Shown: in pieces, positions 1-63,716 of the stretch | Numbering within the stretch: position 1 is the first letter of the stretch | Layout: each line of letters opens with the position of its first letter | Assembly: GCA_965178125.1 (NCBI GenBank) | Contig: OZ237737.1 | Span: forward strand, 1,488,001 to 1,552,000 | DNA length: 64,000 nucleotides | Direction: 5' to 3' | Origin: Bilabrum cf. latius | Taxonomy: Eukaryota | Made by a program: the position numbers and the translations under genes | The notes under the pieces: model-generated | Seen by the model: the letters and a program-made list of their open reading frames with translations, nothing else | Told to the model about the DNA's origin: nothing | Database searches by the model: none

Positions 1-2
1 CG

Positions 3-6716: not shown

Positions 6717-6897
6717 TTGGACTTCAGTTGATACGACAAGTGGTTTTTCGATTTTCGCATTTGTAACGAGCGATTTCGTCTCGTGCTAAAAAACCAGACT
6801 TGCCGAGCTTGCCGCCGAACCGTGGCACACATCTTGGCAAGGGTCGAGCCCCCGAGCCGCAGCGATTTTACGAACAAACTGTGCCAATTTAGGAAAC

Positions 6898-9800: not shown

Positions 9801-10470
9801 GGGGCCCCACAGCAACCGAACGGGCAGCCTTACCGACCCCAACGACGCCTTCTTGGGCGTGGGCTACTGGCACAACTACAAGACCCCCGTGGAGCTATAC
9901 GAAGGATATGGGGTGGGCAACAATGGAGACCCCGCAGACACGTCGACTAACCCGAAGGGCGTGCTCGCGGGCGACGGCAGCATCAAGAAGGTGGTCGCGT
10001 CGGGGACGTGGGTTGCGCTCCCCGCGATCGGGTCCGGCGTGGGGCGGGTGAGGATGCGGTACCCCGTGGCTCCCGTGCACTGGCATGGCAGCACGGGGTA
10101 CAAGGAAACCAAGGCACTGACTCGGGTGGTAGATGCCTCGCTTGAGCAGCAGGGCAAGGGTGGCGTGGTGAGCGTGCTAGACGGGATCCGGGCGACCAGC
10201 ATCGGCGCTCGAGCGCAGCTGTCTGTGAGCAGCCCCGGCGCGCCGGTGCCGTCGCACATCCACGATATATTCATCCCGGGGGGCTGGGTGTCGCTGCTGG
10301 AAGACGGAAGCACGTTCACGGTGGAGACCTCCTCGGAGGAGGGCCACACTCACAGGGTTGCGATCAAGAGAGATCTGGCGACCGGGAACCTCGTGATGCT
10401 CACCTGCGATGGTACTGCAGGCGAGTGCTGGGATGGACATGACACCGTGCAGAACGAAAGGACTTCCTAA
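6898..10470 (+). CDS. Type II membrane protein (about 1,190 aa): N-terminal anchor, Ala-rich coiled-coil stalk and a large globular C-terminal domain of an uncharacterised family; 7 in-frame TAG
   Basis: One frame from aaacATG at 6898 (alternative start 7159) through TAGs at 7069, 7438, 7504, 7552, 7786, 8440 and 8602 to TAA at 10468. Hydrophobic segment AAAVLVVFCCSLAIAALV, many N-x-S/T sequons. Globular part contains SVHDHAD..TIGMGEISAVLNGVQFQTRHNDY, WTWSIPLEVIYLTPL, RMRYPVAPVH and a His-rich end (HIHDI...GHTH...CWDGH). Confidence 0.8.
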
Positions 10471-10618
10471 TGAAAGTGCGAGTGATGCCTCCGTCGAATT
10501 TTTGCATTAAATGATGGAACAGCACAAAGGTCATGAACAATCAATCCATCTTTGCCTAAATATGTATCCCCGCATAGGGGTTTAAAACTTAAGTTTACAA
10601 GCAGCTATTGTGGTATTA

Positions 10619-13600
10619 TCATCCTTCGCAAAAGTGCGCGACTGCACTCGCATCTTTGCCTGGTCCGTAGTCCGTGATGGTGCGTCCAAGTTCTGGAAGG
10701 CTCTTCCGATCTCCAGGTAGCTTTACACTCTTTACTACAACTCGATTGTTGGGATCTACCGCCGTGATGGCGATGGTCTCTCCGCTCGCACCCACGATCT
10801 CGACGGAAAGGCAGGCTTTGTACTTAGTAGTTTCGGCGGCGACGCTCCTGAAGCGCTGCTTCGCAAGGGGCACCCACTTGTCCAGCTCACCGAGAAGGAT
10901 CCACCCGTTCGAGAACTTGCGGAAGAATCGGAACAAGCGCCACGCGTACATGCCTCGAGCCGGGTCGCCTTCCACCCTGCTGCGGCCCGTGGTCACGTCG
11001 GGGGCCTTGCTGAGGCTGTTGTTGGCCACCGCAGCGTGCCACATGATGCACCCGGACTCATTGGCATCGTCACCATCCCGACACTTGCCAGCTGCTGTGC
11101 GGGCCTCCTGCACAGCATACACGCTGCCCTCTGGCAGCATAGGGTAAAAGTCCGGGGCATCAAGCTCGAAGGATCCCACGTTCACAGAGACAAAATACCG
11201 GGCCTCTGCAGGCTCTGCAGCTGCATCCTTCGAATCGCCGGAGGGTGGGATGTACGAGTGGGTCTGCCACAAGGCGGCCGGGCACGGATGGAACCTGCAC
11301 TTGCCGTTTTCAGGGGCGGTCGGTAGCCCTGGCTTGCCGATACCGACAGTGTAGTACGTTGAATCGACGGCAGTAAGGGGCTTGTCGGGTTTTAAGAGGA
11401 CCCCATCGGACCTCGCGGCCATCCTCGCAAGAGATGCATTTGTGAGGAATGGCGCGTCACCGATGCCGACAGGCCCGGTGCTCAAGGCAGCAATGGCCAC
11501 GGTCATCTCGACGCTCGAATGGTTGTGCTCGTTGCCGCACTGGGCGGGAACACCCACCTGGTCGGCAGTGGTCCACGTCACGTCCTTGCTCGGCGGCAGC
11601 CCCACTGCATAGAACAGCAAGCCCGACTGCCCGATCTCGAAGTTGTCCCACTCGTTGGTGCTGTTACCGCCCTCACACGCGTAGTCGTTGGATGCGCGCC
11701 CGTTCGTCACTCCAGGAAGTCGCATGGTTTCCATGATTTGACCTGGGTTTGCCATGCAGATCTGCGTTGGGACGGCGGCTGCCGCCCCTGCCCCGTACAT
11801 GCCGTGGAACCACTCTGCAGCAGTGCCAGTCACGTTGGAAATGCCTGGAGTCTCGTCCAGGTTCTCGAGCATGAAATCCGTCTCAAAGTTGGTCCCACCG
11901 AAGTTGTCCTTGATGCTCTTCATGATCTATCCGAAGAACCGCTTTGATTCAGACGGGGCAGGGTTGTGGTAGGTGTCGTCGAACGAAGGCTACACAGAGT
12001 AATCACCCGACTCGAAAAGATCGAGTTGCTTGGAGAAGCAGCCTGCATACAGCACGAGACCGGGACTGCCTAGCTATTTCAGACTCTCAAACAGTGCGGG
12101 CACGCCATCAGGAAAGTACTTGGGGTTTCCGGTCCATTCCTTCACACAGAGAAACCCCTCCACGTTCACGGACCACCAGTCATCCAGCTGCGTGGCCCGC
12201 GATGGCACGTCGTTCTGTGCGTACCATTTCTGAATCTCCAAGAGCAAGTCTGCTGGAGTCTTATCGGGCAATGGAGGGTAAATCGCGCGACCGAGAGCAG
12301 CACCGTTGTCCGTGTACGTCTGCGAGCAAGCGACACGGAAGAGAATGAGACGGAAGGAGATTATAGGCCTAGTGCCATCACTGCGTTCGAAACGATTCAC
12401 AGCTTAGCACTGCCAGCTGCACACTGTAGCAAACTAGGATAAAGGTCTTACCGACAGCATCATGAGGGCAAGGTCCCCGATACGGGGCAGCATCGGCAGG
12501 GTCGGCTCGGCCCCCAGGTGCTGCTTGACCCCTTGCGACGTAGTAGATGCGCCGTCGTAATGGTACTGGTACGGGTCACCGGGGACGCCGTCCGGAATTG
12601 GCAGCATCGTGTTGTACTTTCTGGCCAGCTCTGCCCAAGACGCCAGGGCACGCGTGGTACCTGCCTCCGACATGGCAATGATCCCGCCCTGGTAGCCTTG
12701 CGGCAGGGAGGTGAGCCGGCCGCTCGGGCCCGTCACCCAGGCGTAGTCGTGAGTGTCTGAGCAGGCCTTAAAATCATCATCACCATCGTTAGGATTTGCA
12801 CCAGGCGCAGTTATGTTGACGATGGCCCAGGTGGTGTCCAACAGGTGCTGCAGGGGGCCCAGAACCAGAGCCGAGCCGGGAGCGGGGTGCTCGAACGGGG
12901 GGTCTGGATCGTACGGATCAGAGGCGAGCACAATGGGACCTCTCTCGATCTCTCCCCCGGGGTCATGGCCCTGACGAGCGCTCGGGATCCCCTGGTTCGG
13001 GAACCCCCTCACGGGGTTCGCCTGGCTAAAGGTGCCGTGCCACAGCAGCGTGGTCGACTGCGCGGAGCCCGCCTGGCTCGTGCCGCATCCCGAAAACACG
13101 GGAAATCGCACGCTCGGCTCTCGAGCTTTCAGACCGACCAGCGTGTTGTCTGCATCGCTGCCCTCGATCCTCCAGTCGAACCGAGCGGCCATCCTGGGCT
13201 CGAAGTACTGCATGAACCTCGTGACTAGCCGGGCTTTCGACCTCGCCGGGTCGCCTGCCGCCCATTCCAGCTCGGTGAAGTTTCCCATGAAATCAATGAT
13301 CGTATTGTTGTATATACCCCCGGTAGAGTTTGTGAGCACCAACGGGTAGGCGGTATCGGCCGGGCTGTACCAGCTTCCACGTACAAACCACGCGACGGGT
13401 TGTAGCTTGGAGTGGGCAACGTAGGACAGGCCATCCGCCACGATGGAATATTGAAGGGAGCTTCCATTCTGCTCATCATATGCGATGTCGATCCAAGTTT
13501 CCCCGGGCTCGTACCCAGAGCTAATTTTCTGGCGAGACCTCCGGGTGCTCCAAGCTGGTCGCTTCGGTTGCAGAAGCATAGCAGATGCACACAAGCATCC

Positions 13601-13633
13601 CAAACTAAATACAATACACGTCCCAACGCGCAT
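10619..13633 (-). CDS. Secreted glycoside-hydrolase-like protein resembling clan GH-D (GH27/31/36); join(13633..12452,12319..10619), about 960 aa, 3 in-frame TAG
   Basis: Signal peptide MRVGTCIVFSLGCLCASA. Splicing yields LS-TYTDNGA. Motifs QLDDWW, YFPDG, LSTGPVGIGD and DGVLLKPDKP resemble raffinose-synthase/alpha-galactosidase-like barrels. TAG at 12074, 11990 and 11927; ends at TGA 10619-10621. Confidence 0.7.
12320..12451 (-). other. Spliceosomal GT-AG intron (132 nt) in the glycosidase-like gene
   Basis: Donor GTAAGA at 12451, pyrimidine tract TCTCCTTCCGTCTCATTCTCTTCC, acceptor CGCAG ending at 12320. It contains an in-frame TAA (12404-12406), so it has to be removed. Confidence 0.75.
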
Positions 13634-14552: not shown

Positions 14553-17500
14553 TCACACTCGGCTACCGCCCGACCGCCTGCCTCCAAGCTTGGCGGCCCC
14601 GCCCTCTACCTTGGACCTGTACGCACCCAGGCCCCTCTGCCCCACCAGCTTCTTCCGGATGTCCTTCAGCGACTCAGAGTTTGGACCCACCCTGCTCAGC
14701 GCGCGCTGGGACCCTTGGCTCTCCACGGGCCCGAACCCCCTCAATGGGGACGCAACCCCTTTCATCTCCTTCTCATCCCCCCCCATGGACCCCGCAGCGC
14801 CCTGCCCTCGCAGCAGGGGGTTGGAGGCGGAAGCGGTCGTCCCCTTGCCCCTGCTGCCGCCCTGCATCGGCTCGCCGGCCCGCGATGCCATCATGGAATC
14901 GAACGCGCGGCGCGTCTTTGCCTTGCTTGCCTTGCCGCTATCGCCCGCCAGACCGCGAGCATGGGCAGCGCCCCTGCGCTCCTCTTCCTTCTGACGAGCC
15001 AGCCGCTGCTCGCGACGGGCCTTGAGCGAAGAACCGCCGTGGCCAGCACCGCCCAAACCGCCCTTCGCGGCCAGAGGGTTCACTGCCACCAACCCGCCCA
15101 TCTTCTCCACCTCGGGGTCTGCTGGGTCAACCAGCGCGGCGAACATGGGGTTGCTCTTGGCGCGCATCGTGGCGCCGGCAAGCAGCTCCACGTGGGACTT
15201 GGGTCTCTTGAGAGACCGGGCTCCCGATGTGGATCCTCCGTCTTCTAGTGCAGGCACTGCCCCGGCCATTGGCTTCTTGGCGGCGTCAATCCTGCCCTTC
15301 TTGTCCCCCTTCTTCTTGCCCATCCCGCAGCACCCGCACTGCTTGGCCAACCAGACTCCCAGTCGCTTGATCTTGATCAGAAGCAGGATCAGGATCGCCA
15401 GCAGCACCAGCAAGTGCAGCACGGCGATCGTCCATCCGATCGCCTCGAACACCTCGTCCCGCGTGCCCACGCCGAGAACACCCGGCGCCAGCAGCATCAT
15501 ACAGAACAAGATCACGGCGCGAGCCAGACCAGTCAGCACGGTGATCCGGAAGATGAAGTAGTGCTGGATCGGCGCGGTAGCGATGACCACGGCCACGTAA
15601 ACCACCTGCTTGAGCAGCAGCACCAGCGTCTGCAGCACGGGCCAGCCCGACAGGAGCACCAAGATGAGCGCAGACAAGAACCGGTCTGCGAGGATGACCA
15701 CGAAGAAGAGCCTATCCTTACCGTGGTACCTCTTGTACAAGGGCCCCAGCGCCAGCCGCATCGTCGGCGACGTCTTGAGGTCCTCAAGAGATTTGGACTG
15801 GATCCAGTAGGCTGCGATGATCACGGCGCCCACGAGGTAGAAGATCATCCAGAACCAGCCGAAGATGTCCATGCCCTCGCCCGAGCACGACTCGCTCAGC
15901 TCGTACACGACCAGCACACTCAACAGGAGGTAGAATGCCATGCAAGTCTTCACGCCGAAACCCACGAAGCGCCAGAACAGCTTGCCGCGCTTGTTGGACG
16001 CCCACTCGTCCGTGTACTTGGAGTACTTGCTCCGCGGGGACGCCGCGGCACCGCCGTCCGGCTTGCTTTCGCCCTCGTCGTCGCTGTTCAAATCGGACTG
16101 CTCCCTGGCCTTGGCCTCCTCCTCGCCATCCATGCCAGCAGCGCCCTTCTCCTCATTATCAGCGCCGGCTTGGCGCAAGTTCAGGCTGGATGCGCCCGCT
16201 GATCCTGGCTTGGCGCGTTCCAGGGCACGCTGCCTGTCCTGGCCAGACCCAGCAGCGATGTTCTTCCGCAGCTTGCCCTGGATGTACCACTCGAGCACTC
16301 CGCACGAGATCACGCCCACCACGGCCACGAGCAACAGAACGATCACCAGTGCGACCACCGCGTACATGAACAAGCTCCTGGGATGGATGCCCAGCGGGTA
16401 CGCTAGCGTGGAAATGGCCGACGGCACGTTCTGGTTGTCGCAGCCCTCGATGGGTTCGAAGGGGAAGCCGCTCTCGGGGTCGATCCACACGTAGTCGAGG
16501 GCATCGGGACCACCGGATGGCCCAGAGCCGAAATCGTCGACTGCTCCATCGCCAGTTGAGTTTCCGACGCCGCTGCCGCCATCCCCTGGGGAATCGCTCG
16601 TACCGTTGTTCTGACCTGCTCCGTCACCGCTCTGGCTCCCGCTGCCGCCTGTGCCTTCGCCGCGGTCTCCCACGGTTGCGTTGCCTCCATCTCCACTGCC
16701 GCTACCGCTTCCGCCGAGCCTTGACCCGTAGCCAGATCCGTACGGCGTGCGGTTGTGTTCTTCGGGCTCGTAATCTGCGAGGCCGGGCGGCGCGCGGGCA
16801 TCATCAACAGCATTCAGCACCGCAGGCATTGGAATCGCGCCGGTAAACGGCACAAACGCAGCCGTCATTGCCTTCAGCACGGGCGGCTGCGTCACATCCA
16901 GCTGTCCGCACATCACGATGAACTGCGCCTAGTCAAGTACGTCAAGCAGTCCGAAGTCGAAGCCGGCCATGCCTCCAACCACGCTCGAGCCAGCACCAAG
17001 TGCTGCCGCTGAGGCGCCACTCGTCGCCCCTGCGGCTGCAGCCACCCCGGCGCCGCCCTGCACCACGGCGATACTGCCCGAGACCCATCCCACGGCTGCT
17101 GCCGTCGCCGCCATGCCATCGTCAGGCGAGGCAGGAGGACCCATCGGCCGGGGTCGTAGGTCGACCGTGTCCACCTTCCCGCCGACCTCACCGCCAGTGT
17201 CGTTGTCCTCGCCGCTGCTGCCGTCGCCGCCGCCACTGTCGGATCCAGGGGTAGGGGTTGGCACAGGCGGAGAGGATGCCTGCGGGGTGGGCTGGGCCGA
17301 TGGCACAGGTCCAACCGTAGGCGGCCTGTGGTCAGGGTCCGTGCCCGGGGGCGCGGCGTCCTCACAGTCGGCCGCACAACTGCTCGCCTCCTCGCCGACC
17401 TCGCACACGCCGTTCCCGCAGATGCCGATCCGGGATGCCGTCGGCGGGAAACTGCGCTGCCTGCAGCTCGTTGCGGTTCCGTTGTTGAGCGGGGACGACA

Positions 17501-20500
17501 TCAAAGCGCTCTGGTCTGCCAGCACAGCGTCCAACTCATGGCTGCCGGGCTCGTTCGACCCGGGAGCAGCAGGCGCCACCTCAACGGTCACCGAGACAGC
17601 ACCGGGAGCGCCTATGACCACAGACCTCACAATCACCCGCTGCACTGACACACCGAGCGCCGCACTCACGTCCCCGGCCACAGCCGCGTTCAGTCGCTGC
17701 CGGAGCGGAGACAGAGCGGACGCATCTGCTACTGCCTCAGCATCTTGGATGAGGCACTTGCTGTGGACTCCCGAAGGGTGTTCCGTGCCGAGCATCAGCA
17801 CAAAGGACGCGGCGCACGAGCTGTCATCGCCTCCGCATACGCCGCAGGCATCGATGGCCTCGGCGCCCGCTTCGCAGCACGAACCGGAAGCATCAAAGGC
17901 AGCACAAGCAGCACCTCCACCCTCACCACTGGGTGCGGGCGCCCACAGCGTGAACGGCTGCGAGTACTGCGTGACCACCTCGGGCTCGCTTGAGCCAGGC
18001 GGCACGATGCTGCACGTGAAGCGCAAGGCGTGGCCAGGGCCTGGGTCGGCTGCCCCGATGCGCACGCCGAGGCCCGGCCAGGACGCCACGCCGTTGCTGG
18101 CTGGAACATCCAATGGTGCGGCACCGTCGATCTCACCGCCGGCACCGTAGCGCACCAGTCCACCGACGCGCAGGTAGCCCGGCTGCTCACCCGAACCTGA
18201 CCCGTCTCCGTCGGTCTTCTTGACCAGGTCCACGCGAACAATAGTGCGGCTGTCACCGGTGACGACCTGCCCGGTGCCGTCCACTAGGCCGATCGACGGA
18301 GTGATTCCCATGGGCCCGCCCAGCACCACGCTGCCAGGTTGTTTGCTCACGCTCACACCAGAGGCAGAACCCGTCGCGTAGATCACAGTGTACCTCGGGA
18401 AACGGCCATCAGCGGTAAGCAGCTGTGCAGAGGTCCAACCCTGGCTCAGCCCGCTGCCCGTCGAGCTCCGGAGGGCGTACTGCGCATCGAAGACGAAGGC
18501 AGCCGGCTTGGTCTCCGGCACCGAGCACCGCAGCATCTCGTCATTCACAACCTTGCATTCCTCGTACAGAGGCACCGCAGACGCGAGGGCCTGGCCTGTC
18601 AGCGGGTCGATGGGAATCATCTAGCACCTGTACACTGCAGCGCCGTTGAACGCAAAGTCGTGGCCCATGACGTCGATCGAGGAGGAGCCGCCGCTGGGAC
18701 CCTCGCGCGGCGTCAGGCCAACCACTGTCGGCGTATCGTCAGCAAGCAGCCCACCGCCAGTCGCACCCCCGGTCCCGCCAGACCCACCGCTAGATCCGCC
18801 AGAGCTGCCACCGGTCGTGCCACCGCCGCCAGTACCCCGGTCGCTCGGGATAGACGGAGGCGCGCACACGCCGAACGAACACTGGAACGTTACGCAGTCA
18901 GAGTCGGCAGAGCAGCTCTCACCCACGGGGCACGGTGGGCAGATGCCACCACCGCAGCGGGCCGTGCAGGCAGACGCATCCGTCGGCGGCACGCAAACTC
19001 CTTGGGCGTTGCACGTCTACGAGAAGCAGTCAATGCCGCTGTTACACCTGTAGTACAGCGGGCAGAGCTTGCCAGCCCCGCAGCCCGCACCGCAGTCAAC
19101 ATCTGACTCACCAATGGCCGGCGTGTGGATCGAGTCGAAGCAGGTGCCAGGGGCACATTGCCCGGGGACACTACCTGCACCCGCGTATCCAACGCACCTC
19201 TGGCTGCCGCATTGACTGCTGGCCGTGCACGCGCCTCCCACAGCCGTGGGCCCGCAGCCCGGCCCGACATCCACGCCAACCTCATTACCGTCCTTCACTC
19301 CGTTGGAGCAGCTCGATGGCGCGGTGCATCGCATGGTTGTGGCATCACACACGATGTCACCACCAACAGCACCGGCACAATCGCTGTCCACGAGGCACGT
19401 GTCGCCAGTATCGCACTTGGCCGGGCAGCTTCCGCTGCAATCCACGCCTGTCTCGTCGCCAGACCGAATGCCGTCGAAGCAGTGCTGCACGGCGCACTGC
19501 AGGTCTTCAGGATGGCAGAAATCTGACTGGCATTCCGAGTGCCGCCGGCAAGCTTCACCAGCCGCCTTCAAGTCCTCCTCGTCATCAGGGTTACTGGTAT
19601 CGGCCGAGCAAATTCCATTGAGGCATAGTCCGACGCAGTCCCCGTGGCTAAGGCAACCGGAAGTGCCGATGGGGCACGGCGAGCACGTGCCACCACACGT
19701 GTTGTTGCCCATCGGGCACGTGAAGACGGGCGTGCCCCCGCCGCCCGTGCCTCCACCTCCGGTCCCGCCGCCACCGGTCCCACCACCGCTGCTACCACCG
19801 CCTGTTCCACCGCCAGTGCCGGACCCAGTGCCACCGCCACCACTACCGCCGCCAGAAGCCGGGGGCTCCGAGCATCTTCTCACGGTTGTGCCGTTCGAAA
19901 GGCTTTCGTCCCTGCAGAATCCGCTGGCGCAGTCAAGATGCGAGTTTGCCTCGCAGCTGTCCCCCACCGAGCACAACTGGCTCGTGCCGAAGCCGCACGA
20001 CAAGCCGGTGCCACTGCTGCCCTCGCACCTCCCGGCAACACAGTCACCGATGCAGTCGGAATCCCGTTCACAAATGCGGCCATCCGCGCATGCATCGCAG
20101 CTCGGCCCACCGCAGTTCCAGTCAGTCTCCTGGCCGTCCTTCTTGGCGTTAGCGCATGAAGGGGCCGCGCAGAACCCAGCAGTGGTGGGTACACCTGCGG
20201 GCGACCCAGCGCCAGCGTCCGTCTGGCAATTCAAAGACTCGCAGTCGGTGTCCAAATTGCAACGGAATTCAGTTCCAATGGGACATCGGCCACAGGTGCC
20301 GCCGCACTCCAAGGCGCCTTCCGAATGGCCGACAGCCCGCACAGAAGCGGTCTCACCCAGCTCAGCTGGAGACATCCTGCCGTCTCTGCACGTGGGTGCC
20401 GCACACTGACCCGAGGAGGTGTCGCAGATACCAGTCGTGCACACATCGTCTCCACCGTTGCCGGCGCAAGTGGTGCCCACGGGGCACTCGTTGTCGCACG

Positions 20501-51188: not shown

Positions 51189-51578
51189 GCTGGGCTTCAC
51201 CGATGCCAGATTTACTTGGGAGGCCAGATAAGTCTCTCTCGTTGCTCTATCTGCGAGATATGGCGCGACGTTTGCAAGGGCAAGGCGTGGAGGCATTATC
51301 GTGCAAGTTTCGGCCATCCAATTCCCATCACGTACCTCCAGTATCGAAACTTGGTAAATATTATCCTTTGTGTGGAAGCTCTCCTGAATTGAAGGCCAAA
51401 TAAAGTTGGAGCAGGGTTGTTTCCCTGCGCAACTATGCGATCGTCGGTGCGCCGTGGGCAACGTTGCACTTGGTCGCAAAAAAGAAAGTGGCAAACTTGA
51501 AGCCCGTCACTCATTTGTCCCGATTATTTCTTAAATGAATGTCCCTGGTGGGCACTGTCAAGCTATCTGTTCAAACAA

Positions 51579-53034
51579 TCACAAAATTTCCTTAGTGAGC
51601 GGGTCCACCGAATCGTAAGGCGCGATCAGCTCGAACGCGGGAGGGTCCACAGGGGCGCCGTCAGGCAGCATGCCTCGATCCCGCATGGCCCTCGCTGCCA
51701 TTGGAGAGAACCCGTCCATCGCATCCAGCACCTCCCTTCTCTCCTGAAGCGCTGTCATCTCCGACTCGTAGCCTTCGGTGCCGGGCATGCCCCCAAACGT
51801 AGGCGTCGGGAGCGGCAGCGCCTCGGTCGGCTTGCGCTTGTTGCTATCCCGGACAAATACGAAGGAGCCCGCAGGCCCCGGAATGGCTCCCTGCACGTAG
51901 ATTAGGTCTCTCCACTCGTCCACCTTGTACACTCGCAGCCCCTGCGTGGTGGTGCGCTCGTTGCCCAGCCGCCCCGCCATTTTCTTGCCCTTCCAAACCT
52001 TGCCCGGCGTCGTCGAGTTGCCGATCGAGCCCGGCTTTCGGTGCGCCTTGGAATTGCCGTGGCTGGCCGGCTACCCCGCGAAATTCCATCGCTTCATCAC
52101 GCCCGCGAACCCCTTGCCCTTGCTCCACCCCACAACGTCCACCCTCTGCCCCGGCACGAAGTGCCTCGCCGTCAGCTCTGTTCCCTCAGGCAGCAGCCCG
52201 TCTTCGCTGACCTCAAACTCGGCCAGCCGGTAGTTGGGCTCGAGGCCCCTCTTCTCGAACTGCCCCAGGTGGGGCTTGTTGGCCCGCTTGGCCTTGAGGA
52301 AGCCGCCCCCGATCTGCAGCATGTTCTTGCCCTGCGCGTGCTCCTCTGCTCGCTTCACCTGTACCACCTGGCAGCGTTCTAGCTGCGGATCGTGAGAGGG
52401 GAATTGGAGCAAGTTTTGCGAGACTGGAGGAGTGATGATAAAGTCTTGACGAGAGGCGCGCTGCCAGGGGGGATGCCTTTCTCACTTTGATTACCGTCAA
52501 TGCCATCCGCCTCCCCCAGGGGTCCCACTCCGGAAGCATTCCGCATTTCAATCCAATAAGAGCAGTTCGTTTCGTCTGCGGTGTCCAGCCTGCTTCGTCC
52601 AGGCTGAGCGGCTCGGCAACCTTTTGATGGGCCATCATGGCAGGTTCCGTCATAGCAAACTAAGACTTCCGATTCACAGCTTTGGGCTTATTGATATCTC
52701 TCCATCGATCTCTGCCGCTATACACGGTGTGCACTTCCCGTCGTACATCGATGCCCTCCTCGCCGTCATGCTTGGCTTCCTCAAGCAACTACTTGGCCAT
52801 TGCAGCCGACTCTGGCGACCCATCGAACACAAAGTTGTTATCCATTGCACCAGACTATGTCTTAACGGCAGAATCGCTTGCTCGTGCTCCGGAAGAGAAG
52901 CTTCGAGCCCGGCCGGTTATAAACTATCTCTCTGGCGCTGCACATACGGCACTCAACGAAGCTGCCGACCTATGAAGGATACGATATCCCTTTGATAACC
53001 CAAATCGAGCGCGCGACAGTCGCATGCACGCCAT
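51579..53034 (-). CDS. MRPL3: Nucleus-encoded mitochondrial ribosomal protein uL3m; join(53034..52486,52382..51579), about 450 aa, 5 in-frame TAG
   Basis: Clear L3 motifs: [84 protein letters not shown]. Start gccATGG at 53034 gives an Arg/Ser/Ala-rich presequence with RSFSS. TAG at 52924, 52855, 52789, 52660 and 52071; ends at TGA. Confidence 0.93.
52383..52485 (-). other. Spliceosomal GT-AG intron (103 nt) in uL3m
   Basis: Donor GTGAGA at 52485, acceptor CCGCAG ending at 52383. Removal repairs the frame change and joins LTVIK to LERCQVVQVK, as expected for L3. Confidence 0.9.
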
Positions 53035-53171
53035 GGCCGGTAGCTACGCAGGTATATTTGACTTGTGAACACGATCAGGCTTTTGCTGAAACAGCTCGTT
53101 ACCAATTACTCATCACACCGGCCGTGGCATCAAGAAAACTGTTCACCGCATTATTGCAGCTTAGTTCCGCG

Positions 53172-53498: not shown

Positions 53499-53605
53499 AC
53501 TGTCCGCGGGGCGCCCAAAGTTATACATGTATTGCGTGTCTTGAAGTTGCACAGAATGACTGGGAACAGGACAGACCGAACGAACTGGCGCAGTTGCCGC
53601 AATGC

Positions 53606-56600
53606 TCATCTTGACGCGTGCGCAGCCTGCAGCTGCCTCAAGAACTGCGCGATGACCCTGCTCCCCTGCACGAGATTCATGAGGCGCACGCTCTCGTTGG
53701 GCAGGTGCGGCCGGTCGCAGGGCTGGCCGAGCGGTATGTGCACCGCCCTGCAACCGAGCACCCTCTCGAGCATGGGAGCCGTCCGCATCGTGCCTCCCTC
53801 CTTGACCATCTGCGGGACCTGACCCCAGACCCTCTCCACCGCCCTGGCCGCCGCCCGGTAGGCCTCCCCTCTCAGGTCCGCCTGCCACCACCCCGCCTGG
53901 GACTCCTCGTCGGCCGACACCACCAGGCGGTTCCGGCTGCGCCGCGATGCGTGCACGTGCTCCAGGTGGGCCTGGATGGCGCCAACCACCAGTTCCGGTT
54001 TCTGGTCAGGCACGATCCTCGCCGACACGGTTGCAACCGCGCGGGAGCCGATGAGGCTGGCGTTCCCCGCGGTGGTGTCGACCGAGTGCACCGTGACTGT
54101 GGGCTCCCGCCAGCGCCGCGCCAGGGCCTGGGCCCCGGGACCGAGGCCTGCGGAATCGTACTGCGCCTGTGGCGCGGGGCTCAGACTACCACTGGCCCCA
54201 CCAATCCCCCTGCCCCAACCGCCACTGCTGCAGCCACCCCTTCTGGCGCCCGCCATTGCATTGTCCTCGCTGCTGCTACCCCTCCTGGCGCCCGCCATTG
54301 CATTGTCCTCGCTGCTGCTACCCCTCCTGGCGCCCGCCATTGCATTGTCCTCGCGGGTCTCGACACTCCCTGCCGATGGAGACGAGGCCGGACCAGCATC
54401 GGTAGCGGTCAGTTCCCTGTGTTCCCCAGCCAATTCTCTGTGTTCCCCAGCCAGTTCTCTGTACATGGCCGCCTCCTCAGTCCCCAGCGGCCGCACCGCG
54501 CCCCATATCCCGGGGACCGCCGGCCTCCCATCGTCTCCTGCTTGCAGAATACCAAGAAGGGCGCACAGGTCGACGAGTGGCTCGGCACCAAACCCGCCAT
54601 CCACGCCAGAATGCAGGCCGCCCTCGCCATCCTCTCCCGCGCCGGCATCGTCCCGCCCCTCCCCTTGCCGCGGGCTCCTGTCAGGCGACGGGGGCGGCTG
54701 CTCCATGCTGCGCAGGGTGGTGGCCGTGCCTGCGCACGCTGTGCGGCGGGCGGCATTCCCCGTCGCCGCGTCTGCTGCCCGTTGAGGCGCCATCGCGACG
54801 GCCCCTGGGACCTTGCCCCTGCTCACATCGTTGCCCAGCCACGGCAACTCAACGGACACCTGCATGCTGACGTGGCCTCGCATCCCGGTGACAAGGCTGG
54901 GCCTCTCGTCCGAGTGCCACAGGGAGTTGCACGCCACGATCGCGTCCACTCCGTCCAGCCAGCCCTTGCGGCGCGCTGCCTCCACGGCCTTGCGGTAGCC
55001 CACGGAGCCGTTCTCCCCCTCGCCCTCGACGATGAAGACCACGTCGGGCGGGGCCGCGCGATCGCCGTCGAAGCCCCTGTGCACGGCCACCGCGGCAAGC
55101 AGCGCCGCCAGGATGGGCCCTTTGTTGTCCGTGGCCCCTCGGCCGAAGAGCCTCCCGTCTCTTGCCACCAGCTGAAAGGGCGGGCTCTTCCAGGCATGGG
55201 CGGGGGCCTCCGGCTGCACGTCGTAGTGCCCAAGGAACAGCACCGTCCTGCGGCGGCTAGCACCAGCACCAGCACCGGCACCAGCACCAGCACCAGCACC
55301 GGCACCAGCACCAGCACCAGCACCAGCACCAGCACCAGCACCAGCACCAGCACCAGCACCAGCACCAGCACCAGCACCAGCACCAGCACCAGCACCAGCA
55401 CTGGCACCAGCAGCTCTCGTCTCGGCCGTCGAAAGATCCGTTGTACTCGTCACACGATCAGCGTCAGCGTGGATGAGTCGCCCCACCACCACGGGATTGC
55501 CGCCCTCCTGCCCCTGCACCGTACCGACGCTCATGCCGGCCTGCGCCATCCAGCCGCTGAGGAGGTCAGCCGCGGCCCAGCACGCATCCCTGCGCCTGGG
55601 GTCCTGGCTGACGCTCTGCACGGACACGAACTGACGCAGGAGGGACACCATGGGCGAGTGGTCTCCCGCGTGCAGGGACAGGGCAGCGTCAACCACAGGG
55701 AGGGCGCGTGCTGCCCCTCCCAGACCACGCGATTCTATGGGTGATGCCCCGTCTGCGGCGCGGCTCCCAGTGCCACCGTACGAGACCCCACCTGAGGCAC
55801 CGACTTGCAACCCCCCGGCGGACATCGGCAGCGAAGGGGGCACAACGCCGTGACCCATGCCGCCAACAGCCAGCGTACCCCCATCCCGACCTACGACATC
55901 GAGTCTGAGTACCGCCGCCCCCGCGTCCCCAAGCCCCGCCACTAGACGGATGGGGCCACCGCTGGCTGCACTAGTGCCGGCTCGGATGCCCGTTCCCTGC
56001 CTGACGGTGGTGGGAGCAGGACACAGTGCCTCAAGGCGGGGCAGGGCCGGTCCTGCCTGCGATGCCGCGCGCGAGCTGCGGCCGTCGTGAGAAGCCGCCC
56101 CTGCCCCGCTCCCGCCGGCGCCCCCGCCCCTTCCGTCAGCAAGCTCCATGCCAGCGACAAACTCGAGCGACGGCAGCGAGCGCAGCTCCACGCCGCCGTC
56201 GCTCGTACCGCACGCAACGAAGCGACTTGTGCATGGGCTGGAAGTTTCGGCGGAACTCTAGTAGGCTGTGGTAGAACGTAGCGATTGCGATGTAAAGCTA
56301 TCGTGCACTGCCAGGAGGCAGCTGACCTGACCACCTGTGCCTACAGCACTTGTACCTGGATCTGCACCTGCACCCGCTAGAGGTCCAGACGCAAGGCCAA
56401 GCCCCTCCTGTCCCCGCCCGCCGCCGGGCTGCTGCCCCCGCCCCCTGCCCCCCACATGCACGACCCGCCTGCAGTGCCCCTTGACGGGGTCCCACAGCCG
56501 CAGCGACCCGTCCATCCCCCCCGTGCAGAGCATCCAGGCGGGGCTGGGCCCCTGGGCAGGACGGGCGAAGGTCATGGCCTGCACGGGACCGCGGTGACCC

Positions 56601-57574
56601 GCCAGCTCCCGCTCCAGGGACATCTCGAAGCGGACTGTCCCGTCCACGCCGGCGGGGGCTGGTAGAGACAGGCTTCCGTCCGTTGGTGTGGCAGATGGCG
56701 CGGGGGCGTGCGCCGGGAGGAACGGGGGGCTGGCCAGCCGGCCGTCTTTCGCCATCGCCGACTGCCCTGACTCTGACTCTGGCTCTGGCCCTGGTCCTCC
56801 ACCTCCACCCCGTCCGCTGGCCTCTTCGGCGGGGCGTGGTGATCGGAGGGTGGCCGAGGCCCTCCAGATCCGCACCATCCCGTCGGTGCCCCCGGTTGCA
56901 ACCAGTGCGCGCTCCCCGGGGAGGGCTGGGGGCACGGCATCCAGAGAGTACACCAGCCCGTTGTGCGCCCGCACGCAACGGATGCAGCCGTCTAGGGCGA
57001 CCCGAAGGGGGCAGCTGCTGCCGCCACCACCACCACTCGCTCTGACTCCACTGGGTGGTCCGCTGGCCGCACGGTCCGATGGCTTGGGTACCTCCACGGA
57101 TGACACTCGCAGGGTCGCAAGTGCGACCACGGTGCTCTGGCAGCCGAGCAGAATCCCGAGCACGGTTTCGTTCGGAGTCACCCCGCCACCCAGCGATGGA
57201 GTAATATCTATCAACTTCGCGCACTGAATCATACCTTGTCCTATACGAAGCTAGAGCTTGCGGGTCAGCCGGGGGGCCCCCGGCAAGTCGGTGCGCTAAT
57301 GAAGCACGAACACGCGCGCCAGTCCGCCAGCGCAGCCGGACACAACGACGCTGGCTGAGCTACCGTTGATACGTTCAGACGACGATACGCATATGACAGA
57401 GTGTTCGTGAGCTGCCCCGTCGCGAGACTCTGCTATAAGGGTCTGCATTGAGGACAGCAATTGCAAGCTCCCGTTCGCCATTCCGAGCACCGTGCACCTC
57501 AGCGGATCGGGTGCGCCACAGGCGGATACTACGCCCTAAAATGATGGCATTGCCATTTCGATTTCATGCTGCAT
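53606..57574 (-). CDS. WD40 + M20 metallopeptidase fusion (Dug2-like architecture), about 1,320 aa, 4 in-frame TAG
   Basis: ORFs 57296-57490, 56258-57232 and 53606-56191 share a frame, joined by TAG at 57536, 57296, 57251 and 56258. WD repeats: AHNGLVYSL..ATGGTDGMVRIW, GHRGPVQAM..CTGGMDGSLRLWD. M20 motifs: GHYDVQP, GRGATDNKGP, EGEGENGS, LHSGVDGG, EGGT, HLPNE. Start uncertain (57574, 57556 or 57550); ends at TGA. Confidence 0.82.
54237..54354 (-). repeat. 42-bp coding tandem repeat, about 2.8 copies (EDNAMAGARRGSSS); a nearby 21-bp repeat (ELAGEHR) lies at about 54408-54461
   Basis: Near-identical copies of CTGGCGCCCGCCATTGCATTGTCCTCGC on the + strand, in frame inside the M20 region. Confidence 0.9.
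55259..55408 (-). repeat. Hexamer microsatellite (AGCACC)n, about 25 units, encoding (Ala-Gly)n
   Basis: Directly visible; in frame just before the TVLFLGHYDVQP strand of the M20 domain. Confidence 0.95.
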
Positions 57575-57729
57575 ATCGCAGGAATGCGGCTGATTGCTCG
57601 ATTCTGAAATCGAAGCATGTGACGAGGACTGCAAGTGCCTCGGCAGCGTTCACAAGAACAGTGCTGCAGACTTAGTCCGAAGCAGATTACTTCATTTCGG
57701 CGGCAAGTTTGCATTGAAATAGTACTAGC

Positions 57730-59754
57730 ATGGCTGACGGCGGGTTGTTGCCCCGTCTGAACTTGGAAACTGCAAGGAAATCTTTCGGTGTGGACCGCGA
57801 GGCCGCAAGCGACCCTTCCAAGCTAGAGTCTGCCGCAGAGGAGCAGCAAAACGAGCTGGAGGCGCTGCAGAGTATATATGGCGAGCTAAGCGACCGCGAA
57901 GCCAAGGTTCCTGGCCCTAAGTCGGGTGTGCTCGTTCTGGCGGCAGCCGAGGGTGTTGGGCCCAGGGTGTTTGACGTCGCGATCACTGCAGAGGACAACC
58001 CAGACGCGAAACCGGGTGACACTCCTGCATCTTGCATGCTCCGGGTGGCGTATTCCCCCTTGTATCCAGACAGCGCGCCGCTGCTCGAAATTGTCGGACC
58101 TTTTGGGGGGTTTCGAGCGAACGAGGGCATGCGAGACCGCATGGTGTCTGGCCTCAGCGACCTTTCTCGGCGCAACGTTGGCATGAGTCACATTCATCTG
58201 TTAGTAGACGAAGCTGCGAGCAGGCTGAAGGACGAGGCGAGGCTGGCGGCGGGCGGAGGGGGTAGTTTGTACGAGCAGCTTATGCGCAAGCGGGACGAGG
58301 AGCGCGCCGCGGTGGAGGCAGCCGAGAAAGAAGTCGCCGATGCCAAGAAGAGAGCCGCTGCCGATGAGCTGGAGAGGCAGGCGCGCGCGTCGAGGAGCGT
58401 GGCGGGGCTGAGCCAGGCTCGTCGCGACGACGCGGACGAGGAGGACGACGAGGACGGGCTGGCGGCTCGGGCCCGCCGAGGCTGGGGCACGCAGGTGACC
58501 AAGGAGTCCTTCGCGGCGTGGAGGCTGGGCTTCTTCCGGTAGAAGGTGCAGGCGTTCGTGGACGGTGGCGAGTCTCTGGCCGCATCGGAGAGGATGGCAG
58601 CCAAGTTGGATGGCGAGGACGGCGAGGACGGCAAGGGCGAGGGGGAGGGAGCCGAGGGGGAGGGGGGTGCGGCGGCAGGGGGCGCGGCGAAGTCCGCTGC
58701 TTAGGAGGCGCGGGAGGCGGCAGTGGAGGAGTTCGAGAACACTTCCAAGCTGCCTGTGCCCCCCACCGCGGAGGAGGCGCGGGAGCTGTGGAAGCGAGCG
58801 GCCGACAAGGGCATGGTGGAGGGCGGGCTGGGTACTCTGGTGGTGGGCGGGCTCGTGGTGCCCGGGTCCAGGCTGCCGCCCATCATGGGTAAGATGCAGG
58901 GAGAGCCCGTGTCTGCGTCCACCGGCAAGCAGCATTTCCTGGACTAGGCCGCCAAGGGGGGGGCTGGCACTATGGCTGTGGGGGCAGACCAGGCGGCGGC
59001 GCTTGCTGAGGCAGCCGCTGCCCTCAGAGCAAAGGACGCCGCTGCTGCCGCTGCTCCTGTGGTTGCAGGAGACGAGGACCAGAAGTAGGCAGGCGCTTCT
59101 TCCTCCGCTGCCTCCAAGTCGAGTTCCGGTGCCGGTGGTGCGGCTGGGGGGGCCTCGTTGCTGGAGGGTGTTGACGTCGGTCTCATGGAGGCAGTGGCGG
59201 CTGGACTGGGCGATGAAGGGGACTTGGATTTAGATTTGGAAGATGACGATGACCTGGATGATGATGATGATGATGATGGCGGCGGCGGCGATGGGAGCGG
59301 GGATTCGGGTGCGGGTGCATCCAGCGGGGCAGGTGCCAGGGCGCCTGCGCCCGCTCCCGCGGCCTCGACCAGCGGGGGAATCGAGCGATCCGTGTCTGGC
59401 TCGACTGGGGCAGCGACGCCGGGCGGCAATAGCGCGGCGGGCGAAGCCGACTACCGCGCGATGCTGGTCCGGACGGCCATCGAGGGCGCAGAGGCGGCTG
59501 CGATTGCCACGGGGGCGGGGAGGGAGGTGCTCGTGAGCGCGGTGGAGCGGGCCAAGACGCAGCTCGAGGAGCTCAGGAAGGAGGCGGAGGAAGGCACGGC
59601 TCCTGCATCTGCGGCTCCAGCAGAAGCGGGTGCTGGGGCGGGCTAGGGCAGTGCCAAAGAGGCTGACGAGGGCGCGGCGGGCGGCGATGCAGCCAGCAGG
59701 CGAGAGCGAAGACGCGCTCGTCGGGCGAAGCGGAAGGAAAAGAAGGCGTCATGA
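57730..59754 (+). CDS. RWDD1: RWD-domain protein, RWDD1/Gir2 (DFRP2)-like, with low-complexity expansions; 674 aa, 5 in-frame TAG
   Basis: EEQQNELEALQSIY, YPDSAP, VGM.HIHLLV (RWD); GTQVTKESFAAWR and TGKQHF (DFRP C-terminal motifs); acidic tail. TAG at 58540, 58702, 58945, 59086 and 59644; ends at TGA 59752-59754. Confidence 0.8.
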
Positions 59755-59841
59755 AGACAAACATTTCATTTTCATTTGGACTCGCGTAGCACAACAATCA
59801 ATATATCCCGCTAGAAAAGGCTGCTGCGTCACCCGACGAGG

Positions 59842-61368
59842 TCAGCCCGACGCCGACATCGTTTCCAGGTGCAGCAGAAATTTAACCAGAGTGCGCGCAT
59901 TCCTGTCGACCGGACATGCGTATACCTGCGGGCGAGTGGTGGAATCCAAGCAGCCGTTGCGGCCCCAAACCCCGTTGCATGAGGAGGCACCGTGACCGTC
60001 CAAGCGGGCAACTGCTTCGGCTGCGGGATGCTTGGAGTTGGCGCGTGCCTGGTCAAGTCGCTGCCCGTTACGAGCACCATTGGAAATATGCATGCGTTTC
60101 TGGTTTCTGTACAGCGTCAGCGGGTGAATGTACATCCGTAGCTTGTTGGCCAAGGCTGCGTCGAGCTGCAGCACCCGATCCGTCCACTCCGAGCACAGAG
60201 ACCTGTTGCCAAACCGAAGGATTCCGTCCGGCGTCCAAGCACCACCGCTGGCAGAGTCATCCTCCGGCAAGGCGGATGCATTGGTCACCACTCCCACGGT
60301 CCTCAAGACCTCGAGGGCGTGCCGCCGCACCTCTGGCCTCTACCACTGCTTGCTCTCGCCTACGAGAGCGTCGGTGCCAGCGACCGAGGGCGATGCTTTG
60401 GATGCCTGTGATACCACTAGTTTTGGTGCCTTGAGTGGCTTCCAGCACCTGTCCTGGTCGATGGTGACCCACGCCCCGGTGTCGGCGTCGACAAAGTGGC
60501 CGTGGTCGGCCCTCTCCTCATGCCGGCACCCGCTCAGAAAGAGGAACACCATGTATCTCGCCAGCGAAGCAAGGCACTTTTCGTACCTTTGATTGATCTG
60601 AAGGGCGTCCTTCGAGCTCCCTTCGGAGCTCCCGGCCAGCAGCAACCGGCTTGGAGCCGTGGTCCGTACGCACTGCATGGCCCGCGGCGGCGGAGGGGCA
60701 CCGGCCTGCACCGCCACATCGGTGTGCCGTGGATTTGTGTCCGGCGCTTGAGTGCTCTTGAATGCGTCCGCTCCCACGGGCTATTCAAAAGGTCGCAAAA
60801 GCTGTAGCAAACGCCCTTCATACCACATCACCGCCGACCCAGACACTGCAGCATCTCCACCCGGCGCATTCCCCCGCATCTCTCCGGAAGTCGGTTGCCT
60901 CAACACTGACGATAATATGGATCGAAATCGTGGAGGCCCTGCGCACTTTTTGAGAAAATCCCTCGCGCAGTTCGGGTTTGAATTGCTGCAACGACTCGAC
61001 ATCAATTTTCCAAGCGGTAGCGTCATCCAAGCGGTGCATGGAACAAGGCCAATTCCACCTAGCACCTGATCCAAGTGCCATACTGCGCTCTATCTCCAAG
61101 CTAGCTCTCCATTTTCCTACTATCCTGGCTTAAAGAGGGCTGCCGTGCTGTAGTTGCCGCCCGCTAGATAGCGGCTCCGCGACGTAAGCCTTACTCGTGC
61201 GGCGCAGCGACCCAAGAAGAATTCATCTACTTGATTTATATCAGGATGAGGGCACACGATGCCGTTGGTGCCGATGCCATCGTTGCGACCTGTTGTAGGA
61301 ACAGCGCAAAGCATCTGCCCGACGATGTAAGCTAGCAGTGGGGAAAGACGAAGAACGCGTCCCCGCAT
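59842..61368 (-). CDS. Secreted FAM20/four-jointed-like atypical kinase-fold protein, possibly a pseudokinase; 508 aa, 5 in-frame TAG
   Basis: ORFs 61120-61368, 60781-61074, 60340-60777 and 59842-60330 share a frame, joined by TAG at 61120, 61117, 61090, 60781 and 60340. Signal-like N-terminus; ALFKP, R*SAVWHLDQVLG..LVP, YMVFLFLSG and WVTIDQDRCW parallel the FAM20/PI4K-type motifs FKP, E.AA[FY]HLD..L..VP, .FDFL.GN and LDNGR.F. Ends at TGA. Confidence 0.62.
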
Positions 61369-61550
61369 GCCCTTGATTTAAGACAAATGCAGATGCTGCA
61401 TTGGATACGTAAGTGTTGCGAAAGTGGTGCTGTCGGTCCGCGGCGGCCCAGAGTTTGCATATCCGGAACTCATCCACGAGAGGCTGCCAAGATCCATGGT
61501 TCTGCTGAGCTTGATGCAGGAATTCAGCATCGCAGAGGTTGGTGCAGTGT

Positions 61551-63716
61551 TTAATCCACTCGAAGCGCAAACACCAGCCCCGCAGCTCCGAGGACGGTAG
61601 CCACGGCCAGGGCGCCGGCAGCGGCGGCGGCCGAGCGGTCCGCCCCGCTGCCATCGTCCGTATCATCATCCGCCTGAGACACCCCGTCCGACGTCGCCGA
61701 GAAGGACACCCCGTCCGTGGTACTCAGCAAAGCATCAGCCCGGTTTTCGATGAGGTACTGCTCGGTGTCCGGCATGAACAGCGTCGAGTCCGCAGCGTCC
61801 TCCTCCACCTACGCAGCTGCCGCTGCCGTGGCAGCCTCGCTCTCCAGCCTGAGCTGGAGCTCGATCTGCACCCCCTCCGAGTTAGACCGGTAGTCCGACA
61901 GCCGACACGCATGCTTGGGCCCCCCTACCTGGTTCATGATATCGGTGCAGGCCCGCTGCCCCACGATGGCCCGCTGCGCGTCGTCCACCAGGTACGACGG
62001 CTTGACGTTCTGGATCGTGATTGTCACGGTGGCGACGGTGCTGCCCCGGCACAGCCTGGGGAACTAATCCGCAGGCAGCTCGCAGGACTCCGAAATGCGC
62101 GACTGGAATGCCTCCGGACTGGTCCTGACCTCCCCTGTCCTGAAGTTCTCCCACATCGCCAGGGCTGTGTCCCAGCAGCACTCTGCCTCCTCGGACCACT
62201 GCTCCATCTGGTTGGCGCACTGCGCCGAGCACTGGGGGGACGCTACTTCCGGGTTGAGCGGGCTCCGGGTCCTCCTCCCGCACGACCCCGTGATCTCGTA
62301 CGTGGCGTAGAACTGCACGGCCAGGCTCTGGCTGAACACGAGCGCGCAGTACTTGTCGTCAGACGGCCGCTTCCCGCAACCGTACTGGGCCATCACGCTC
62401 ACCCCGAGGAGATCGACGTGGGCGGCCTGCTCCGCAAACGAGAAGAATGCGCGGGCGCAGGGGATGCAGAATTCGTCCAGGAAAGCCTCGCTCAGCTGGT
62501 TCTGCAGGGCCTCTTCGTCAGCGTCGGCCAGGAAGAGCTCCTCCGTCAGCACCTGCGGGAGGCAGAAGTCGGCCGGCACCCCGGCCTTGAGGCACACGAG
62601 GTCGTAGAGCACCTCGATGTCTTCCACGTTTGCGACCAAGTCGCCTGCGCCCGCCGCCACGCCCGCGGCCTCGAGGACCACGGAGGTAGTGGACTGGATA
62701 TTCGAAGAGATCAGGTTCCTGCACTCGTTGTTGCCGCACGCGTCCGTGACGAGCGCCCTGACGTTGTCGGGCAGGGGCGTATCCGTTGAGTTCCCCACCA
62801 GGCCGAGGTCTCGCATGATATCGGTGATTTCCTGGAAGCAGTACTCGCCCCCCTCGTTCTGCGTGCAGAGCACGTCCACCACGGTCACGGCCTGGGCCAG
62901 GGCCGCGGGGCACACGCCGCCTGACAGGCTGCCGTCCTCGATGGCGTCCATCGTTGACTGCATGGAGGCGTAGCATGCGGAAGTAGTCACGCAAAGCTCC
63001 CCGGGGTTCAGTTCGATGTTGCTGGAGAACGTCTGCTCGCAGGCCCGGTCCATGTCCTGAATCAGTGAGCAGCACGCAGTCGAATTGTCCCGATCGCAGA
63101 TGCTCTGGACCGGATCGTCGTCGATCTGGAGCCTCCGGCCCGGCAGTATAGAGTAAGACTGCAAAGGAATAGAAAAAGAAGCGTCGTGTGGCGTTGCCAT
63201 GGGATCACATGACTGTTGGGTGCTCGAAAGAGGGCCACAGAAGAACCCGACAGGATCCACCGGTAGGTGCCGCGTGCCTCCTCAATATCCACTGCCAGTG
63301 CTTGCATTCCGGGCACCCAACGCGCTGGCGGAGTCAATGGTAAACGACTAGAATGGTGGTATCAGTTGAGGGCAAAATTGGCTGCCATGATCTCATGGGT
63401 TTGCCTAGTTTTCTTTTGAGTCTGACCCGCCGACCGATTCGGTTTCCCCGCCGTTGTCCGGGGAAGCCAAATACAGCGGCACATACGGCAAAACCAAGGC
63501 CCACATTAGACAATTGCTATCGGAGTTTTCATCAGGTGGTGCACTCACACTGGGATTTAGAACGCGGGCGGCGGTTTGGCCGACTAATTGTCTGGCTTGC
63601 TGCACAGCATCTTTTGCGTCGCTTAGTAGGTGCTCCCCAAAAGATGGAGATGATCCGACAGCGCAATTGGCAAAGACAATTGCGGTTATCATAAATGATA
63701 CTCGTCCGGTCTTCAT
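61551..63716 (-). CDS. Cys-rich secreted, probably GPI-anchored surface protein; tentative join(63716..63549,63158..61551), about 590 aa, 2 in-frame TAG
   Basis: Exon 1 gives the signal peptide MKTGRVSFMITAIVFANCAVG. The main exon has three C.....G.[YF]C units (VLCTQNEGGEYC, LVCLKAGVPADFC, YGCGKRPSDDKYC), TAG at 62064 and 61809, an acidic linker and the C-terminal tail SGADRSAAAAAGALAVATVLGAAGLVFALRVD ending in TAA. The 5' structure is less certain. Confidence 0.7.
63159..63548 (-). other. Putative GT-AG intron (390 nt) in the GPI-protein gene
   Basis: Consensus donor GTGAGT at 63548 and strong acceptor TTCTTTTTCTATTCCTTTGCAG ending at 63159, both phase 0. It removes an in-frame TGA at 63282. 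A small internal exon cannot be excluded. Confidence 0.5.

Follow-up and report, generated by a model that had tools for sequence, protein, structure and literature searches.

Could UAG become a sense codon in a nuclear genome while UAA goes on ending genes? This question is raised by a stretch of 64,000 nucleotides (nt) from Bilabrum cf. latius (NCBI GenBank assembly GCA_965178125.1, contig OZ237737.1, positions 1,488,001 to 1,552,000 of the forward strand), which was analysed over its full length and is called the window below; coordinates are counted from its first letter. The window has a G+C content of 62%, and its longest open reading frame (ORF) under the standard code spans 1,393 codons. 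When TAG is read through, ORFs of 12,317, 2,237, 1,347 and 1,226 codons appear. Our gene set consists of nine models, two of them spliced, with 20,144 sense codons in total, a G+C content at third codon positions (GC3) of 0.65-0.90 and a strong GC3 periodicity. In the cytoplasmic translation of these genes, UAG very probably stands for glutamine, with UAA and UGA left as stops, UGA being the commoner of the two, which corresponds to a code of the NCBI translation table 15 type.

The window opens with G1 (3..6716, forward strand), whose 5' end is cut by the window border. It encodes an armadillo-repeat protein with a PH-like C-terminus (Pfam ARM_ARMC5 and related families), contains six in-frame TAG codons and stops at TGA. 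Its C-terminus, ...FKTNPAAL, is conserved among homologs, and the full-length homologs, Cafeteria roenbergensis among them, are 31-40% identical to it. G2 (6898..10470, forward strand) encodes 1190 amino acids that match no Pfam family; it has seven in-frame TAG codons, and its terminator at 10468..10470 is the first member of a tandem TAA TGA. The next gene, G3/4, lies on the reverse strand and is composed of exon 1 (12452..13633), an intron of 132 nt with GT..AG ends (12320..12451) and exon 2 (10619..12319). The spliced model stays in frame over 960 codons, with three in-frame TAG codons in exon 2 and a TGA stop followed by TAA, and the intron contains the TAA at 12404-12406 together with one TAG.

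By far the longest gene is G5 (14553..51317, reverse strand), with 12,254 codons (12,317 from stop to stop), 49 in-frame TAG codons, no TAA and a TGA stop. The product, which can be described as a surface-type giant, contains repeated Gly-rich modules (GGGGAGG...RV-type runs), F5/8 type C domains, four Big_5 domains and a long Cys-rich repeat region, and it ends in a TRP-like C-terminus with multiple membrane passes. No full-length relative of it (5,500-17,500 amino acids) was found among the 448 candidates scored, the matches being otherwise fragments and partial matches of 25-40% identity. Next to it is the gene of the mitochondrial ribosomal protein uL3 (51579..53034, reverse strand; exons 53034-52486 and 52382-51579; Pfam Ribosomal_L3), with five in-frame TAG codons and a TGA stop, which matches uL3m entries of the PDB at an E-value of 5e-56. 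Its intron at 52383-52485 (103 nt, GT..AG) is placed by homology and reading frame rather than by RNA. Because the Pfam matches mark the window products as eukaryotic and the uL3 gene is split by this intron, the window belongs to the nuclear genome of a eukaryote with few introns. An Rfam scan of the window gave no matches.

The remaining genes are G8 (53606..57574, reverse strand; WD40 and peptidase M20; four in-frame TAG codons), G9 (57730..59754, forward strand; an RWD-domain protein; five), G10 (59842..61368, reverse strand; 508 amino acids with no Pfam match; five), all of which stop at TGA, and G11 (61551..63200, reverse strand), which encodes a Cys-rich protein with a hydrophobic C-terminal tail, has two in-frame TAG codons and stops at the TAA of 61551-61553. 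In the initial annotation, which was made from the letters of the window alone, G11 was labelled as a glycosylphosphatidylinositol (GPI)-type gene. The hydrophobic tail agrees with that label, and the predicted N-terminus (MATPHDASFS...), which has no obvious signal peptide, does not; an upstream exon may be missing from the model. The G11 relatives at 97% and 95.5% identity begin nearly alike (MATPH...).

In-frame TAG is present in all nine genes. Counted together, they contain 86 TAG, no TAA and no TGA in frame, and TAG would make up about 12% of their Gln codons. The figures of 86 and zero had already been given in the initial annotation, and the corrected gene models return them unchanged. 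Outside the reading frame TAA is by no means rare, since it occurs 93 times off frame in the same genes. The gene G5 shows this distribution most clearly, with no TAA in frame versus 26 and 28 in the other two frames, and with 49 TAG in frame versus 52 and 75. On the assumption that the ratio of TAA to TAG equals that of CAA to CAG, the number of in-frame TAA codons expected, calculated as TAG x CAA/CAG and summed gene by gene, would be 18.9, and the probability of observing none is 6e-9. Most of this expectation (13.8) comes from G5, where CAA is used 77 times, and only 0.2 comes from G1, the most biased gene. The comparison of TAG:TAA (86:0) with CAG:CAA (529:105) by Fisher's test gives p = 8e-7, and the same test gives p = 5e-4 against AAG:AAA and p = 2e-3 against TTG:TTA. 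The limits of G5 are identical whether TGA alone or TAA and TGA together are taken as stops; therefore, the absence of TAA is no artefact of ORF calling, and it is not due to chance either. In these genes UAA is kept out of the reading frames as strictly as UGA.

As for the gene ends, TGA closes seven of the nine genes and TAA the other two (G2 and G11), and none ends in TAG. Since UGA ends seven genes and never occurs in frame, it is still a terminator. Both TAA ends, at 10468 and at 61551-61553, had been claimed before and were found again here. We also agree with the caveat then attached to the first of them, namely that a TAA followed at once by TGA cannot by itself separate stop from sense. 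Beyond the TAA, the next in-frame TGA lies 0 codons on in G2 and 8 codons on in G11.

More can be learned from relatives. A scan of metagenomes gave 18 loci encoding relatives of G1, of which the locus L001 (GC 58%) is the closest to the window, its protein being 80% identical to that of G1. This locus is broken under the standard code and open when TAG is read through. Codon mapping placed nine in-frame TAG opposite window codons and one more within an intron-like insert, and it placed no TAA; over the 2,016 aligned codons, eight TAG stand in ungapped context, two stand beside gaps, and TAA is again absent. L001 ends in ...FKTNPAAL TAA precisely where the window has ...FKTNPAAL TGA. Past this TAA there are TAG codons at +13 and +66, and the first TGA comes after 84 codons, at nt 6531, the end of the TGA-only ORF. 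Among the 13 loci that reach the conserved C-terminus of G1, 12 have their first stop 0-6 codons past it, the other one being L014 with 23 codons. Because the first stop is so closely tied to the C-terminus in 12 of the 13 loci, TAA is, as judged from this alignment, the terminator in the L001 organism. A second case is provided by P0127, an ortholog of G11 with 64% identity, which aligns into the hydrophobic tail and terminates one residue short of the TAA of the window. As far as such protein ends show, UAA ends genes at conserved C-termini. The earlier reading of UAG as sense and UAA as terminator is thus borne out by the TAA end of L001, the end of P0127 and the lack of in-frame TAA; an in-frame TAA at a conserved Gln position, which would speak against it, was sought throughout the sequence within reach and was not found.

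One TAA at first sight appears to interrupt a gene. The TAA at 12404-12406 (reverse strand) stands between two ORFs that share a frame, and it is the only in-frame TAA between ORFs. When public contigs were aligned to the first 20 kb of the window, a contig of the set X5 was found to join position 12319 directly to 12452, skipping 132 nt with CT..AC ends, that is, GT..AG on the coding strand. A DNA contig of the set X1 covers 1-20000 without gaps, the 132-nt stretch included. The stretch reads GTAAGA...polypyrimidine...CAG, and its length is a multiple of three. Because the X5 contig skips exactly this stretch with its GT..AG ends, the TAA is intronic and does not count as a sense codon within a gene; the two ORFs belong together as a single gene with a TGA end.

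Three of the contig sets (X5, X7 and X8) resemble transcript assemblies, as they cover the genes one by one and their contigs stop near gene limits (1-6861, 6841-10529 and 10548-12551). The X5 contig at 1-6861 extends 819 nt past the window start, and that at 6841-10529 fits the limits of G2. The depth of X5 varies from gene to gene (87, 28, 11 and 36), and the weakly covered gene has no cover in X7 and almost none in X8. Whether X5 is RNA or DNA, the 132 nt are dispensable and are bounded like an intron. In the first 20 kb of the window, not a single difference was found in the independent X1 contig or in the contigs of X5, X7 and X8.

The relative L001 has intron-like insertions of its own. 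Its G1 ortholog carries about four (around 1838-1990, 2190-2320, 5270-5400 and 5530-5626), none of which is present in the window copy, and the two that were read directly have GTGAG...CAG ends. Insertions in L001 without a counterpart in the window suggest rapid gain or loss of introns between close relatives. A few other features of the window may be mentioned here. Two pairs of convergent genes, at 10470-10619 and 59754-59842, have their stop codons only 148 nt and 87 nt apart, and 19 nt separate the ends of the X5 contigs that cover the first pair; the 3' untranslated regions there must therefore be very short or overlapping. The C-terminal part of G2, about 600 residues (8600-10470, forward strand), resembles a folded His-rich domain (HIHDIF...GHTHRV), again with no match to a Pfam family. 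In G8, the M20 domain is broken by a long Ala-Gly run encoded by (AG)n and by short tandem peptide repeats, which include a 14-residue unit present three times and a repeated RELAGEH unit.

Which amino acid does TAG encode? Between the window and L001 there are 13 pairings of a TAG with a standard codon, and the partner is CAG in seven of them and GAG in three, with TCC, ACA and TAC once each. For the 12 pairings away from gaps, a log-likelihood was calculated from the substitution profile of the window/L001 alignment itself, and it gave -22.7 for Gln, -37.7 for Glu and lower values for all other residues. A wider sample was obtained with a HMMER search using 1,200 residues of G5, which returned 90 proteins, six of them short orthologous fragments of 42-86% identity. 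Together with L001, the cluster mates of these G5 fragments and two G11 orthologs, all at 40% identity or more, they yield 28 ortholog pairings, in which TAG faces Q 14 times, E four times, S four times, and T, Y, R, H, N and I once each. Summed over the 28 pairings, the BLOSUM62 scores of Q and E are 74 and 42 half-bits, a difference that favours Q by a factor of 2^16, and Leu and Ser score far below Gln. It should be noted that Gln accounts for only about 3% of the residues of G5. As judged by these orthologs, Gln is the clear best reading of TAG. We also tried the internal repeats of G5 as a self-alignment; the partners were scattered (S 9, A 6, I 5 ... Q 1), and the repeats were dropped as too diverged.

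The glutamine reading with UAA and UGA as stops has to be weighed against other explanations of the same counts. In an ordinary code of the NCBI table 6 type, in which UAR (UAA and UAG) is Gln, TAA would be a sense codon that is merely rare through the GC3 bias. The high GC3 of the genes fits such a bias, under which G1 would hardly be expected to contain any TAA, and a TGA is found within 8 codons of both TAA stops of the window. However, none of the 18.9 TAA codons expected over the nine genes was seen, although G5 alone, with its 77 CAA codons, should have contributed 13.8 of them and TAA is common off frame. Under that code, moreover, L001 would overrun by 84 codons a C-terminus that is kept within 6 codons in 12 of 13 loci, and P0127 would end only by accident where the TAA of G11 stands, so that this code is highly improbable. 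The in-frame TAG codons could also be left untranslated, as in pseudogenes, or reflect assembly errors or edited sites. We found no point in support of this explanation, and its probability is practically negligible: the 86 TAG lie within ORFs that have intact domains and contain neither TGA nor TAA, the first 20 kb are identical in the X1, X5, X7 and X8 contigs with no base difference listed anywhere, and the positions of TAG differ between the window and the 80%-identical L001, both frames being open.

Two further explanations accept that UAG is read as sense, at least inside genes. It might mean glutamate, or some other residue, instead of glutamine. Reassignment to Glu is known elsewhere, since the text of McGowan et al. 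(2024; PMC11687900) describes UAG as Glu in an uncultured ciliate, and UAR is Glu in Blastocrithidia; E is the partner in four of the 28 ortholog pairings, and among the distant G1 homologs two TAG columns are rich in E/D and only one is rich in Q. On the other hand, Q is the partner in half of the 28 pairings despite its low share in G5, it leads by 15 natural-log units in the pair-specific likelihood and by 32 BLOSUM62 half-bits, and seven of the 13 window/L001 pairings differ by the single transition TAG/CAG, which leaves a meaning other than Gln quite improbable. UAG might instead be context-dependent, as in ambiguous codes of the Condylostoma/Blastocrithidia kind, encoding Gln inside genes and acting as a stop near some 3' ends, with UAA and UGA as ordinary stops. 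Nothing speaks directly for this; zero TAG ends among only nine genes is weak evidence, and since three of 12 standard-code relatives end G1 in TAG, about two TAG ends might be expected at that rate. None of the nine window genes and not the L001 ortholog either has a TAG end, and in every gene a TGA or a TAA stands where the homology or the coding signal ends. We therefore hold context dependence to be improbable, if the least so of these alternatives.

Several points nevertheless weigh against the reading of UAG as Gln with UAA as a stop. Only two of the nine window genes end in TAA, with TGA close behind both; the window organism itself thus offers little direct support for TAA as a terminator, and the argument leans on L001 and on the C-terminus of one ortholog. 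With only nine genes, UAG may also terminate some genes. One of the four Glu pairings comes from a strain as close as 95.5% identity (P0128, opposite G11 codon 379). For the single TAG within the conserved region of uL3, the best PDB homologs show a variable column (G, L, M and L), and the six TAG columns of G1 correspond to E/D, A, Q, A, N/D and E in the homologs of 31-40% identity; hence the distant alignments are uninformative or lean to E. The RNA nature of X5, X7 and X8 was only guessed by the tool, which flagged X5 as 'probably DNA', and none of the runs listed is on record as RNA. Finally, the decoding mechanism is something that we infer.

Such a mechanism could be as follows. UAG would be decoded by a transfer RNA (tRNA) for Gln with the anticodon CUA, which is one base away from the CUG anticodon. 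Since CUA mismatches UAA at the wobble position, UAA would escape the reassignment. The release factor eRF1 would have lost, or retained only weakly, the recognition of a third-position G after UA, and would still recognise UAA and UGA. New TAG codons would arise mostly from CAG by C-to-T change, an origin that fits the prevalence of TAG/CAG pairings between the window and L001. The arrangement proposed in the initial annotation, a tRNA with no other anticodon than CUA combined with an eRF1 blind to UAG, seems reasonable. A scan for tRNA genes in the window and in the loci L001, L004 and L014 found none, and the Pfam scans of the window gene products gave no match to eRF1.

How far does this code reach among relatives? 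The protein P0126, which is 97% identical to G11, stops at residue 378, just before the window TAG at codon 379, and P0042 (86% identity) ends exactly at a TAG site of the window. These two ends indicate that near relatives have the same TAG sites. P0126, P0042 and P0038, all from public collections, break off at TAG because their genes were called with the standard code. As such callers cut proteins at every TAG, the public proteomes of this lineage are fragmented, as the ends of P0126 and P0042 illustrate. The situation is different in the other 17 of the 18 loci (27-45% identity, GC 39-71%), where no in-frame stop was found in ungapped alignment; stops in L013 and L016 stand only beside alignment gaps. 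In the 12 of these loci that reach the C-terminus, G1 stops at TAA in six, at TGA in three and at TAG in three (note that the tails of L009 and L012 are identical and may belong to one organism). Because the 17 other loci are free of in-frame stops and three of the 12 still end G1 in TAG, the code is, as judged from these alignments, confined to a narrow clade, shared with a close relative and not with more distant ones.

The only informative organism name among the full-length G1 homologs is Cafeteria roenbergensis/burkhardae, and one member of another cluster of G1 homologs is labelled Symbiodinium sp. KB8. By this single named G1 homolog, the closest named relative is the bicosoecid stramenopile Cafeteria. 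A scan of contigs from prokaryote genomes for stray contigs of the lineage gave 32 pattern matches, none of which was confirmed. In the literature searched, which lacked most subscription journals, no nuclear reassignment of UAG was found described for any stramenopile. Based on these observations, we tentatively propose, giving it slightly less than an even chance, that the window represents an independent and unpublished change of UAG to Gln in a GC-rich lineage related to Cafeteria, with UAA and UGA as stops, UGA being the main one, and with three of 12 standard-code relatives ending the gene in UAG; it would then be the first reassignment of a nuclear stop codon in a stramenopile, with UAG captured without prior AT-driven loss. 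With a GC-rich genome and UGA as the favoured stop, UAG would not have been fading under AT pressure. If this is true, the case fits the route through an ambiguous intermediate better than that of codon capture. Relatives at 80% and at 27-45% protein identity flank the change, so that it can be dated and the accompanying alterations of tRNA and eRF1 can be traced by comparison.

Codes that split UAG from UAA are few. According to the text of McGowan et al. (2024; PMC11687900), they comprise an uncultured rhizarian, Iotanema, Scotinosphaera, some phyllopharyngean ciliates and Protocruzia. Whether UAA and UAG are coupled by mechanical constraint or by historical habit, and by which route a codon is reassigned, are questions on which every further independent case bears. 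The initial annotation implied more novelty than is warranted: such decoupling has been in print since 2017, and Iotanema, Hartmannula, Trochilia and Protocruzia are all reported to read UAG as Gln and to stop at UAA. [quoted passage not shown] (2017; PMC5304391), with Leu at UAG in the rhizarian exLh and Gln in Iotanema. The data on Iotanema spirale, a metamonad of the Fornicata, are based on a transcriptome and include the eRF1 substitution T32G in the GTS motif, with UAA as the primary stop. In the account given there, Iotanema is like the window organism in that UAG is Gln and UAA and UGA are stops, and the same argument from a tRNA-Gln(CUA) is made for it. It belongs to an unrelated lineage, however, and its primary stop is UAA, whereas the window is GC-rich and ends seven of its nine genes in UGA.

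Among phyllopharyngean ciliates, McGowan et al. (2024; PMC11687900) describe one lineage with Leu at UAG and two more with Gln, and they also name Protocruzia (Gln) and Scotinosphaera (Ser). In Hartmannula sinica, Trochilia petrani and Protocruzia tuzeti, as in the window, UAG alone has become Gln and UAA is kept as a stop, and these ciliate changes are depicted as independent, recent and narrowly distributed events, as the one in the window seems to be. In contrast, the rhizarian exLh and the TARA phyllopharyngeans (Leu) and Scotinosphaera (Ser) share the UAA stop with the window and differ in the amino acid. Much more widespread are the codes in which UAR is Gln; the same text lists many ciliates, Hexamita, Streblomastix, ulvophytes and Amoeboaphelidium, and some UAR=Gln organisms are known to have genes for tRNA-Gln(CUA) (Panek et al., 2017; PMC5304391). 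There UAG is Gln as in the window, but UAA is Gln as well, whereas the window has no TAA in 20,144 codons. The codon table of NCBI translation table 15 ('Blepharisma nuclei; some phages: TAG=Q') is identical to the one proposed here, as a formal description that implies neither a lineage nor a mechanism. In the phyllopharyngean genomes reported (PMC11687900), UAA ends 86.9-98.3% of the genes and UGA is the rarest stop; the window, which is not from a ciliate, shows the reverse. The kind of code is therefore already known, and what differs here is the lineage, the high GC content and the preference for UGA over UAA.

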